Source: a virus (taxonomy: Duplodnaviria > Heunggongvirae > Uroviricota > Caudoviricetes). From it: DNA of 27,724 bases. This document shows, one piece after another, positions 7,619 to 21,301 of this stretch. A program made the position numbers and the translations under genes. Location: positions 1-27,724 of the IMG/VR virus record IMGVR_UViG_2617270952_000002; one strand, 5' to 3'. The notes under the pieces were generated by a model. It worked only from the letters and a program-made list of their open reading frames with translations, made no database searches and had not been told where the DNA came from. The number at the start of each line of letters is the position of its first letter. The stretch's first letter is position 1.

Positions 7619-7635
7619 AGAATTATTAGAGCAAT
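7619..7635 (-). promoter_or_regulatory. C1 operator
   Basis: agaattattagagcaat; 15/17 to rc consensus. Confidence 0.6.
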
Positions 7636-7694: not shown

Positions 7695-7722
7695 TTTGAC
7701 AATTGCTCTAATGAATTATAGT
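7695..7722 (+). promoter_or_regulatory. sigma70-like promoter (TTGACA-16-TATAGT) with embedded C1 operator 7702..7718, reading toward coi/c1
   Basis: ttgaca ATTGCTCTAATGAATTA tagt; operator 15/17. Confidence 0.65.
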
Positions 7723-9160: not shown

Positions 9161-10279
9161 TTATTCAGCCGCCACCGGTTTTAACAAGCCAGCATCGAGC
9201 AGTTTACGCGTCAACCACTGCTGGCCTTTACCCGTTAATTGAGGCGTCAACCGTATCTGGTAGCCATCTTCATCATCCAGCACCACTTCTTTCACCGTGA
9301 AATACCCCGCGTTGATGTACTGCTGGAACGGCACATTTTTACGTCCACCGGACGCTATCAGGATGCCGTTCTCCCGTAACCAGACAAACAGCGCGTTTTG
9401 TTTAAGTCCAACAACCTTTGCAAAATTCCCAATCAGGATCCCTTTAGCTACTGATACCCGGTCGGCAAAATCGACTTTAGGAGCGGCGGCCACCAGCTGC
9501 TGATTTAGCTGGTGGGCTTTCTGTTCCAGAAGTTGCTTTTGTTCAGCCAGTTCGGCAGCCAGGCGTAGGGCTTCAGGAAGCGTCTGGGGGATTGCGATCG
9601 GTTGCTGTTCTTTTTGTCGGAAGTAGCTGTCTTCCAGTTTTTCAAAGAATGCCCATGCCTGATCGGTTTCGAGCATTTTAGCGTGGCGGGCTGCGCCGCG
9701 TTCTGTCCAGAGGGGGAGTGAGCGAACATTGCGAGCAATTTTTACAGAGTAGTTTAAAGCTACTCTGTGCTTCAACTCGCGCAATGATTCTCCTTCAACT
9801 TTGAAAAAGTGCTTCCCTTCAACAAAGCGTACTTTGTTCTCATGATGATTTTGGCGAATACGGATTGTTTCTGTCCCATACCCTCTAGCAAGAGTCTCGG
9901 TTGTCACTACACGCACTCCCTGCCATTCCAGAACGGGAATTTCATCAGACTGATTCTGAACAACCACCAGCTCCGATTCTTGAACTGAAGGTGCATGAAT
10001 TTTTTCTGATTTAACGTTAGTTGCTTTCATTCTGTGTGCCTCCTTGCGTGCTTCGGCTGCGGCGGTTGCGTAATTCAGATGACCCTGTTCGAGCAGGTAT
10101 TCGCGGATATCAGACAACAGGATACGGTGAACCGCGTTCTTGTCCTTTCTCCGGTAAAGTTGTTTGGTGATCATGAAGTAGTTGGCAATAACGCCTGGTA
10201 TATCCCTGGTACTGATACAGGCAGTGTGCTGTTCAATTGCCTCGATCATCTCTTCACGGGTGACTAATGACGTTCTCAT
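9161..10279 (-). CDS. phage antirepressor-like protein (ORF6N-like central domain, KilA-C/ANT-like C-terminal domain)
   Basis: C-terminal ...VSVAKGILIGNFAKVVGLKQNALFVWLRENGILIASGGRKNVPFQQYINAGYFTVKE... resembles ANT C-terminal domain; central FVEGKHFFKVEGESL...LWTERGAARHAKMLETDQAWAFFEKL resembles ORF6N. Confidence 0.7.
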   Translation of the reverse strand: MRTSLVTREEMIEAIEQHTACISTRDIPGVIANYFMITKQLYRRKDKNAVHRILLSDIREYLLEQGHLNYATAAAEARKEAHRMKATNVKSEKIHAPSVQESELVVVQNQSDEIPVLEWQGVRVVTTETLARGYGTETIRIRQNHHENKVRFVEGKHFFKVEGESLRELKHRVALNYSVKIARNVRSLPLWTERGAARHAKMLETDQAWAFFEKLEDSYFRQKEQQPIAIPQTLPEALRLAAELAEQKQLLEQKAHQLNQQLVAAAPKVDFADRVSVAKGILIGNFAKVVGLKQNALFVWLRENGILIASGGRKNVPFQQYINAGYFTVKEVVLDDEDGYQIRLTPQLTGKGQQWLTRKLLDAGLLKPVAAE

Positions 10280-10497
10280 AGTCCCTCCTGAGCAGAAGCG
10301 TTAACAGGGAGGCACCAGTAACTGAGAGAATTGCGTGAATCAGTGGAAAAACGGGCAGAGAAAATACATGGGGCGTCAGGAAGCTGAGAGCGGGCCTCAT
10401 CTTCTGTCGGTGCAATAACGAAGTGATAGTGACGTTTTTGGCAGGAGTAAAAGCGCCAGATAAATTCAGGATGAGTTGGGATAGGGATAGTAGCCAT
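10276..10497 (-). CDS. hypothetical 73-aa protein immediately upstream of and overlapping the antirepressor start (Icd-like position)
   Basis: ATG at 10497 preceded by AAGGAGG; stop overlaps the antirepressor ATG (ATGA). Confidence 0.45.
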   Translation of the reverse strand: MATIPIPTHPEFIWRFYSCQKRHYHFVIAPTEDEARSQLPDAPCIFSARFSTDSRNSLSYWCLPVNASAQEGL

Positions 10498-10557
10498 ATT
10501 GGCAGCCTCCTTAGACGTTGGTATGTAACCACCGCAGAAGAGACCAATCTTGCTGGC

Positions 10558-10633
10558 GGTGGACTGTACGGAGTTGGCCTTACTGGCGTCCAAGGTAACC
10601 AGCCTACCCGAAGGTAGCCCCATACAGCCCACC
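10558..10633 (-). ncRNA. candidate structured regulatory RNA (c4-like antisense RNA position)
   Basis: 14-bp RNA duplex possible between 10620..10633 and 10558..10571 that includes two G-U wobbles (pairs only as minus-strand RNA), enclosing a CUACC-UUCG-GGUAG tetraloop hairpin at 10604..10617. Confidence 0.3.
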
Positions 10634-10661
10634 ATTGTAGAGGTGTGCGTGTACGCCGATA

Positions 10662-10686
10662 CAAAAAAAAGACGCGAGCGGCGTCT
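10662..10686 (-). terminator. rho-independent terminator downstream of pacB
   Basis: Hairpin gacgc-gagcg-gcgtc at 10671..10685 followed on the minus strand by a run of 8 T. Confidence 0.6.
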
Positions 10687-10816
10687 GTATCGCCTTAGAC
10701 TTAAGCGGGAGGCCAATCCCGGCACCCGTTTTAATGAGGTGCCTGATAAGCATAAACCGAAAATGCCTCAAGGCGCAAGAGGTCAGGCTCAATGTAACAT
10801 CGGTAGTTAAAAAACA

Positions 10817-10833
10817 CAATTTATTAGAGCAAA
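10817..10833 (-). promoter_or_regulatory. C1 operator
   Basis: caatttattagagcaaa; 15/17 to rc consensus. Confidence 0.6.
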
Positions 10834-10836
10834 TAT

Positions 10837-12321
10837 TCATTCATTAAGCCATGCCAGAGCTTCATCAACCTGCGCTTCGTCTTCGACGCTAAGCACTTCA
10901 TCCTGGGGAACATAATCCGCCAGCATAGCGAAACAATATGTATCCCAATGGTCTGGTGAGTGCAGGTTGAGTTTTTTCTTCATATCCTCCTTACTCATCA
11001 CCTTCCATTGACCTGCGGAGTTAATCCCTACAGGGATTTTCGACGCTTCCTCAATAGTTTCATTACCCTTATCCAGTCTCATACGACCAGATTTTACGGC
11101 CTCTGCGGCTTGAACGTTGGCATAAGCACGTTTATCAAAGTACAGGCTCTTATCTTCACGGCTATGCATCTTTTTACCCCAGCGTATACGCTGTACGGTA
11201 ATACCATAATACTCGTACATCAGATCCGCCGTTGCTTTACCCAGGCCATCGCCGTCTATCGCTATGGTGATATTTGGGAATCGCTCAGGATTACATTCTG
11301 CGAAAATTTTGGCGGCAAGCTGCGTTTCTGTAACGTCTGTGTATTCCAGCATTCGATAGTTGATTACACGGCGTTTATTTCGCTGGCCGGACACCATCAT
11401 GATATTGATAACGGACTTATCCCGTCCCGTACCACCAGCAACGTCCACACATGCAAGCCAGCCCCATCCTTTGGCAATCTTGACTTTCCGCCGCGTTGCA
11501 CGTTCAACCTCATCACGTCCAAGAAGGAAGCCATCCTGTGATTTAGGGAATAGGCCGCGTACCTTAATCATGTACATAGGGTTATCACGCCCGCCGTACT
11601 CCGCCAGCTTCATTTTGATAAATGCTGGCGTTACCAACGGTGATTCCTCACTGTTAAGCGTGATCGCCGTATAAACGCCATCAGGGTTACCAGGACGCTT
11701 GGCCAGTTTATGGTGTGTATCGTAGAAATAGCCGCTTGGGCGTGTAGGCTGTGACAGCAATAAGATGCGGTTATCCTGTCCGGTAAGAGCACCGGTGATG
11801 ATACCGAAAGCTCTATCACTGACACCGGAGGCTTCATCGATAATATACAGAAGATGATCTGCGTGTTCACCGGCGAGAGCTTCTTCACTTCCCAGACGAA
11901 AGCCCTTCGGTACTACAGTCCATACACCTTTACCAGTAACCTCATAGAAAGCGGTTTCTGTCAGAACAAAATAATCAGCAAGCCATGGAAAACGGCTGGT
12001 GGCAGTAGCCCAGTTTATCTTGATGTACTTGAATATACCGGTCATTACCTGCTGAATTTTGTTCGCAACGATAATGGCGCGGGCACCGGGATACATGATT
12101 ATGAACAACATGATCATGATAGAAGTCATGTCTGATTTCCCGGTACCGTGACCAGACGAAACAGATGTCTTGCTACCCTGTTCCTGCACAGACTCAATAA
12201 TCAGATCCTGCTGCCAGGTAGGTGTTTTGCCGAACAAAACATCAGCGGCAGCAATCCAGTCATAACGATATAGCGCCACCAGCTCGCGCCAACGTGGATC
12301 CGTTACGCAACTTCTGGCCAT
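10837..12321 (-). CDS. pacB: terminase large subunit (PacB-like)
   Basis: 494 aa; Walker [10 protein letters not shown], Walker [12 protein letters not shown]; same length as remembered P1 PacB. Confidence 0.8.
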
Positions 12322-21284: not shown

Positions 21285-21301
21285 ATATTTATTAGAGCAA
21301 T
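21285..21301 (-). promoter_or_regulatory. C1 operator
   Basis: atatttattagagcaat; 16/17 to rc consensus. Confidence 0.65.

Follow-up and report, generated by a model that had tools for sequence, protein, structure and literature searches.

The interval between pacB and c1

The window, i.e., the whole stretch of 27,724 nucleotides analysed here (IMG/VR virus record IMGVR_UViG_2617270952_000002, positions 1 to 27,724), belongs to a Punavirus (P1-like) genome. On its minus strand, pacB is followed by a C1 operator-like site, an isrK-like leader with a terminator, a predicted C4 antisense RNA gene, icd and ant, while c1 lies beyond ant in convergent orientation. The locus is 99.4% identical to that of phage vB_EcoM-673R5 and about 86% identical to that of RCS47. 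Since pacB and c1 are separated by only 24 nt in P1, the block of about 1.7 kb found between them in the window is an insertion; P1 has no module at this place, whereas relatives of the window carry one besides their canonical immI. In the passages of Venturini et al. 2019 (PMC6906374) found by a term search, ant and two short ORFs are described as inserted there in pTZ20_1P and RCS47, and these passages make no mention of RNA genes at that insertion. From pacB towards ant, the features of the interval are the following:

10817–10833, minus strand: C1-repressor operator-like site TTTGCTCTAATAAATTG, directly after the pacB stop codon, with two mismatches to the P1 C1 consensus
10819–10814 (TTGTGT) and 10796–10791 (TACATT), minus strand: weaker upstream putative promoter, aligning with the C1-controlled P2c4
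10749–10778, minus strand: putative promoter with hexamers TTGCGC and TATGCT 18 nt apart, placed where P1 has its promoter P1c4
10665–10742, minus strand: isrK-type leader RNA (Rfam RF01394, 60.8 bits against a threshold of 50)
10552–10639, minus strand: predicted C4 antisense RNA gene, given with its Rfam extent and supported by the fold, the covariation and the annotated limits of P1 c4
10618–10633, minus strand: 5′ strand of the closing stem, acceptor-like; G10633, preceded by U10634, is where RNase P is predicted to create the 5′ end
10604–10617, minus strand: hairpin 1 (CUACC-UUCG-GGUAG), from the minimum free energy (MFE) fold, with four of its five pairs covarying
10582–10603, minus strand: hairpin 2 with a 12-nt loop, from Rfam and the fold; b′ is CCUUGGACG at 10595–10587
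10574–10579, minus strand: a′ (GGCCAA), in a single-stranded joint, complementary to a1 and a2 and covarying with both
10558–10573, minus strand: 3′ strand of the closing stem, acceptor-like, pairing with 10633–10618
10554–10557, minus strand: tRNA-like 3′ tail G-C-C-A, directly after the stem
10542–10548, minus strand: a2 target AUUGGUC, forming 6 bp with a′, one of them G-U
10509–10517, minus strand: b2 target CGUCUAAGG, overlapping the icd Shine-Dalgarno sequence AAGGAGG (10512–10506)
10276–10497, minus strand: icd, 73 aa (NCBIfam phage_ICD_like, 49.8 bits), 80% identical to P1 and P7 Icd
9161–10279, minus strand: ant, antirepressor of 372 aa with Pfam ORF6N and ANT/KilAC domains

The icd stop codon overlaps the ant start codon in an ATGA, and the ant product is 55% identical to P1 Ant1 (E = 8e-129). 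Its N- and C-terminal parts are near-identical to those of P1 Ant1, whereas the centre (residues 110–230, approximately) is replaced by ORF6N; by its domain composition, the antirepressor of the window is a domain-swapped Ant. In the record of 673R5 (ON470615, 4619–6618), the counterparts of ant and c1 carry shorter or broken-up CDS annotations (Roi of 257 aa; C1 in pieces), unlike the genes of the window, which are complete (372 and 283 aa); the difference could stem from errors in that sequence or from real decay.

The operator-like site at 10833–10817 aligns with the annotated P1 operator Oc4. When the C1 operator consensus was searched with up to three mismatches, ten sites were recovered across the window (5580–27066, including 21285–21301, 7619–7635 and 7702–7718), for 0.18 expected, which would be consistent with a P1-type C1 regulon. 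The promoters are assigned only from alignment with the P1 promoters and from the better hexamers that Stx2 phage F039 and D6 show in the same columns: the putative promoter has weak hexamers (3/6 and 4/6 matches), and a consensus promoter scan returned none on the minus strand at its threshold. The isrK-type leader ends in an intrinsic terminator (6-bp stem at 10686–10670, then a U8 run), and with so strong a terminator between promoter and C4, C4 output depends on read-through. The leaders of RCS47, D6 and the Stx phages likewise match isrK, with a1/b1 sites and a terminator, in contrast to those of P1 and P7, which are of the terminator-less c4-a1b1 type (RF03163), while in the window the intrinsic terminator stands between b1 and C4. 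At its gathering score, RF03163 finds no match in the window, whereas P1, P7 and Gifsy-1 do match it. The window leader nevertheless carries functional-looking a1/b1 sites and may work like a c4-a1b1 leader.

Fold, family and maturation of the RNA element

A sequence-only reading of this DNA had proposed that the minus-strand transcript forms a 14-bp duplex with two G-U wobbles, enclosing a UUCG hairpin, just upstream of the Shine-Dalgarno sequence of a 73-aa ORF. Checked base by base, the duplex does consist of 14 pairs, from G10633-C10558 through G10620-C10571, with wobbles at G10628-U10563 and U10622-G10569; the enclosed hairpin is present as well (C10617–C10613, UUCG at 10612–10609, G10608–G10604), and the element lies 43 nt upstream of the Shine-Dalgarno sequence of that ORF, i.e., icd (ATG at 10497). 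The MFE fold of 10639..10552 on the minus strand reaches −41.6 kcal/mol (z = −3.53), a value that none of 200 dinucleotide shuffles equals, while the plus strand of the element reaches −31.6 kcal/mol (z = −1.15; 26/200 shuffles as good). Because the plus strand folds poorly and is mismatched at the wobble positions, the structure is strand-specific, as had been claimed. The MFE fold further lengthens the closing duplex by G10619-U10572 and G10618-C10573, and includes two parts absent from the sequence-only reading, namely a second hairpin inside the duplex (G10603–G10599, 12-nt loop at 10598–10587, C10586–U10582) and an 8-nt single-stranded joint (10581–10574). It is these two parts that carry the target-recognition segments.

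An Rfam scan of the whole window yielded two matches that exceed their curated thresholds, and both lie on the minus strand: RF01394 (the leader) and RF01695, C4 antisense RNA, at 10639–10552. The latter scores 75.9 bits for a threshold of 45 (E = 2.1e-13) and covers the full model (1–87); P1 c4 itself scores 68.8 bits against the same model. We consider, with a probability of about 0.9, that the duplex first noted is the closing stem, and the hairpin the first of two, in an antisense RNA gene of the C4 family. The c4-like control of the antirepressor operon that had been suggested is supported by the Rfam match, the covariation, the complementarity between loops and targets and the homology of Icd and Ant. 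Its description as a cis-encoded antisense element fails in the usual sense of a transcript from the opposite strand, as C4 is read from the same strand as its target, upstream of it and in the same transcript.

For the study of covariation, a covariance model seeded from five homologs yielded 69 matches (56 of them distinct) in 100 sources, spanning 34–106 bits and 56–71% G+C. A scan of genome contigs with Icd recovered only five loci, and the diverse set of homologs was collected by scanning viral contigs for a DNA pattern. This pattern prescribed the UUCG loop and a portion of hairpin 2, so that the columns concerned are conserved partly by construction, while it placed no constraint on the closing stem. 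In the alignment of the 56 distinct homologs, standard pairs make up 99.1% of cells, and both partners have changed in 19 of the 27 pairs (in the closing stem, 14/17 model pairs). The covariation score is 0.623, compared to 0.03–0.11 when partners are slid by one to three columns, and is reached by none of 500 shuffles. Since an alignment fitted to a model favours that model, we also aligned 15 diverse members, P1 and Gifsy-1 among them, with plain MAFFT and submitted the alignment to RNAalifold; the three-way fold was recovered again, with 16/27 compensatory pairs. Plain MAFFT of the P1/P7 and isrK-type C4 sequences shifted hairpin 2 by one column, hence the use of the covariance-model alignment, cross-checked with RNAalifold.

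The borders of the closing stem are conserved too, with U(−1) in 46/56 homologs and G(+1) in 55/56, the latter being equivalent, at G10633, to the annotated 5′ end of P1 c4. After the stem, the homologs keep N (A in 39/55), C (48/55) and C (53/55), where the window has G-C-C-A. The U(−1)/G(+1) pair of positions and the N-C-C tail would fit maturation by RNase P as in P1/P7 C4, and the mapped 77-nt C4 of P1 leads one to expect, by homology, a mature RNA at about 10633..10555 (79 nt). Maturation of the P1 and P7 C4 RNAs by RNase P is reported by Hartmann et al. 1995, as cited in PMC11143913.

Target recognition and proposed control of icd and ant

Within the whole 590-nt transcript, the two best partners of the hairpin 2 loop are b2, at the icd Shine-Dalgarno sequence, and b1 (GUCUAAGG, 10700–10693), in isrK. 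The b′-b2 duplex ranks first (9 bp, −13.9 kcal/mol); b2 is matched by 0.8% of shuffles, and b1 and b2 together by none of 1000. Along with a1 (AUUGGCC, 10717–10711, in an isrK hairpin loop), b1 makes up the candidate decoy sites of the leader; over the 230 nt upstream, no other sites form better duplexes with the C4 loops. By energy alone, sites as short as a1 and a2 do not reach significance. In a six-way alignment (window, RCS47, D6, Stx2 phage F039, P1 and P7), a1/a′/a2 and b1/b′/b2 show three-way covariation: in each of the six immunity types, an altered a′ or b′ is met by matching changes in the upstream and downstream partners. When extended to 43 a′/b′ types, the comparison shows C4 pairing with its own downstream flank at a mean of −12.8 kcal/mol, versus −7.0 for foreign flanks. 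At the level of sequence, such RNA-target covariation is the signature of an immunity-specifying antisense RNA, and the complementarity predicts that C4 represses Ant and sets immunity specificity.

The spacing of the sites follows the family as well, a2 lying at offset +4 after C4 (family range +1 to +6) and b2 at +34 (+25 to +38 across the 43 types). Despite extensive sequence divergence, nearly every isrK-type locus has precisely 138 nt from the 5′ AUG of C4 to the downstream start codon (10635 to 10497 in the window); by this measure, the C4-to-SD architecture of isrK-type loci is rigidly fixed in length.

Among the closest known systems is immI of P1 and P7, which shares the three-way fold and the order C1 operator, promoter, a1, b1, C4, a2, b2/SD, icd, ant; in the GenBank record of P1, this order reads Oc4, two promoters, a1, b1, c4 (77 nt), a2, b2, icd and ant. 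Also in common are the position of a2 (3–4 nt after C4), that of b2 (10–11 nt before the ATG) and the ATGA overlap of icd and ant. The recognition segments differ, being CUGUCAA and UCACUAAC in P1, as opposed to the a′ and b′ of the window. In P1, icd and ant are translationally coupled and C4 is excised from its precursor by RNase P; this background, together with the P1 annotation, underlies the corresponding steps below.

By homology with P1/P7 immI, we infer the transcription, processing, repression and decoy steps as follows. A promoter just downstream of pacB, preceded by the C1 operator, would transcribe the isrK-type leader with its a1/b1 sites and terminator, and read-through transcripts would extend across C4 into icd and ant. 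RNase P would then cut between U10634 and G10633, and 3′ trimming would leave an RNA of about 79 nt with a tRNA-like acceptor stem and NCC tail. Its a′ (GGCCAA) and its b′ loop would pair with a2 (10548–10542) and b2 (10517–10509) of the mRNA. As b2 covers the icd Shine-Dalgarno sequence, icd would not be translated; as ant overlaps icd and depends on its translation, the antirepressor would not be made, and C1 repression, i.e., lysogeny, would hold. The terminated isrK-like RNA, or a1/b1 in cis, would titrate C4 and turn the operon on.

This last step leans on the Salmonella prophage Gifsy-1, in which isrK, STnc1160/orf45 and anrP follow each other. The likeness extends to the isrK leader, its leaky terminator, a match to the C4 model, a2/b2 at the Shine-Dalgarno sequence and an antirepressor; Gifsy-1 differs in being a lambdoid prophage with the system next to antQ, in involving no C1 operator and in having no icd, the antirepressor following directly and a 45-codon ORF overlapping C4 having been proposed as the coupling ORF. 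In NC_010392 (34131–34329, minus strand), the C4 model matches orf45/STnc1160 directly after isrK with 69 bits, and a match to the c4-a1b1 model overlaps isrK. IsrK is known to bind Hfq and to activate the antirepressor in trans. Both properties are known only for Gifsy-1 (PMC4825925), where IsrK supplied in trans raises translation of the antirepressor by a factor of more than 100. Hershko-Shalev et al. 2016 (PMC4825925) do not describe the RNA downstream of IsrK as a C4. The compensatory mutant pairs published there, G28-C162 and G31-C159 (counted from the IsrK 5′ end), fall on a1 (UUGGCG) pairing with a′ (CGCCAA). These data support the view that the isrK-like leader of the window acts as a putative C4 decoy, and the published IsrK mechanism could be re-read as titration of C4. 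On the other hand, the a1 mutations also had an effect in cis, namely higher basal translation (PMC4825925), and cis effects of this kind do not fit a simple decoy model.

One alternative is a cis-acting switch, following the published Gifsy-1 IsrK model, in which the C4 region of the read-through mRNA pairs with the leader (a1b1 with a′b′) and locks the message in a translationally silent state that the terminated isrK-like sRNA opens in trans; the same reading leaves little role to a processed, trans-acting C4 repressor. The leader of the window is of the isrK type with a terminator, like that of Gifsy-1 and unlike that of P1. Mutants of Gifsy-1 demonstrate a role in cis for the a1-a′ pairing and activation in trans by IsrK (PMC4825925), and in the centroid fold of the 351-nt transcript, the C4 stem persists while the leader pairs with downstream sequence. 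Yet a2/b2 at the Shine-Dalgarno sequence covary with a′/b′ in all 43 types, isrK-type loci included, and a switch made purely of leader and C4 needs no such covariation. Moreover, RNase P substrate features are conserved, and a stable processed RNA, STnc1160, has been reported downstream of IsrK in Gifsy-1 (PMC4825925). We therefore regard the cis-acting switch as unlikely, and a minor role for processed C4 as equally so, even though the switch and repression by processed C4 are largely compatible.

A second alternative concerns the step at which expression stops. Just as the CI RNA of phage P4 (seqA/seqC), a small RNA processed from a leader that pairs with upstream and downstream sites and keeps the prophage quiescent, C4 could act mainly through premature transcription termination upstream of ant rather than by blocking ribosomes. 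The maturation of CI RNA depends on RNase P. In P1, translational repression of icd reportedly leads to Rho-dependent termination before ant. Rfam clan CL00128 holds both C4 and c4-a1b1, and PMC4825925 likens IsrK to P4 seqA and STnc1160 to CI RNA. P4 CI differs, however, in that it causes premature termination of the transcription of replication genes, not occlusion of a Shine-Dalgarno sequence in an antirepressor operon. In the window, b2 directly overlaps the Shine-Dalgarno sequence and its distance to the start codon is conserved, which argues that ribosome occlusion is primary and that termination is a consequence rather than an alternative; we hold a mainly terminating C4 to be improbable.

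Coding annotation, second module and distribution

The element also has a protein-coding annotation. According to this reading, an ORF of the Ash family (orf45-like, 119 aa) would run from the AUG at 10635–10633 in frame into icd and the RNA structure would be incidental. Indeed, no stop codon interrupts the frame between this AUG and icd in the window, nor in 15 of 23 homologs of 88 nt, Pfam Phage_ASH (PF10554) matches the translation in the icd frame (39 bits for a threshold of 26), RefSeq carries an “ash family protein” pseudo-CDS at 10635–10522 (minus strand), and Gifsy-1 orf45 is reported to be translated from the equivalent AUG (PMC4825925). However, P1, whose C4 RNA has been defined experimentally, has a stop in this frame after 14 codons, and P7, RCS47 and D6 have one before icd. 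Conservation is not frame-specific, as amino-acid identity amounts to 0.62 in the AUG frame and 0.61 in frame +1, below that of icd at matched nucleotide identity, while substitutions are pairwise compensatory across the stem. The AUG lacks a Shine-Dalgarno sequence, whereas icd has AAGGAGG and its own ATG, and the in-frame state follows from the fixed 138-nt architecture. Codon-position periodicity discriminates little here, even icd having only a mild third-position excess. We thus rejected this ORF as a protein-coding gene and judge the coding reading very unlikely. The stretch annotated as Ash (10522–10635, minus strand) corresponds to the C4 RNA gene plus a2, and the annotation looks spurious, probably a translated RNA gene; the PF10554 family may itself be built on translated C4/CI RNA genes. 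The RefSeq pseudo-CDS was inspected in one record (plasmid NZ_CP033882), and the search table gives the same name under matches in other records. Finally, the acceptor-like stem with its GCCA tail, the UUCG hairpin and the position just downstream of pacB might suggest a tRNA-like gene, the remnant of one, or a pacB terminator; such a reading has a negligible chance of being correct, since ARAGORN finds no tRNA or tmRNA gene at the element, no U-run follows the C4 hairpins and the only intrinsic terminator is that of isrK (10686–10663).

With the C4 reading retained, the pacB-adjacent module can be compared to the canonical one. Phage 673R5, the closest relative, keeps its canonical immI (sim, c4, ant1, kilA, repL) 47 kb away, and the C4 of that immI has a′ CUGCUAA and b′ UCAUUCGU, matching its own targets. 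Three other pairs of modules, each pair from a single contig, strain or metagenome bin, were compared: pairing of a C4 with its own b site yields −11 to −14 kcal/mol, and with the b site of the other module −3 to −8 kcal/mol. The specificity of the canonical immI C4 is accordingly predicted to be unrelated to that of the pacB-adjacent C4, and the two not to cross-react. Two side observations touch on such pairs. One viral record (IMGVR_UViG_2874945390_000001, 10285–10850, minus strand) carries two complete C4 modules in tandem, about 390 nt apart, the first of the isrK type and followed by an icd-like ORF, the second of the P1 type with its own a1/b1 and a2/b2, and their specificities differ. 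Two contigs labelled “MAG: Bacillota bacterium” (JAFAFU010000035 and JAFAFU010000019) encode Icd proteins 94% and 81% identical to that of this E. coli P1-like phage and bear both types of C4 module; this metagenome bin is probably contaminated by an enterobacterial phage-plasmid.

Regarding the origin of the module, the closest C4 sequences are those of Stx-converting lambdoid phages (81%), closer than P1 and with an identical closing-stem sequence. In LC710660, “isrK Hfq binding RNA” and “C4 antisense RNA” are annotated upstream of Rha/antirepressor, with the same type of leader as in the window; these phages differ by their a′/b′ (GUCCUAA and CCUUGAUUG), by a different downstream gene, with no annotated Icd homolog, and by their lambdoid backbone. 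This closeness suggests that the pacB-adjacent module is a mosaic acquired from lambdoid phages. A broader proposition, which we put forward tentatively and consider possible rather than probable, is that the lineage carries two orthogonal C1-linked C4/Icd/Ant switches, the extra one being lambdoid-derived, with an isrK-type sRNA that sponges its own C4 (anti-antisense). If so, the plasmid prophage would gain a second, independently triggered route of induction or anti-immunity that P1 lacks, and the Gifsy-1 mechanism by which IsrK acts on its own mRNA would really be C4 RNA titration.

Some 130 complete E. coli records contain the exact element; most of these are plasmids of about 95–100 kb, as P1-like phage-plasmids are. 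The element is genuine yet ordinary, i.e., a new specificity allele of a well-known regulator of the P1 c4 type. Such a textbook-type regulator, detected automatically by its Rfam model, is of modest importance and brings no new principle; the new allele stands in an extra pacB-adjacent module with an isrK-type leader. In the one record that was checked, the element bears no other annotation than “ash family protein” pseudogene, which leaves the immunity circuitry mis-annotated. Beyond annotation, a second immunity-I module with an unrelated code would bear on superinfection immunity and on the co-residence of resistance-spreading P1-like elements, while the isrK sRNA family would be tied to the a1/b1 decoy of C4 systems, which may offer a simpler reading of the Gifsy-1 IsrK results.
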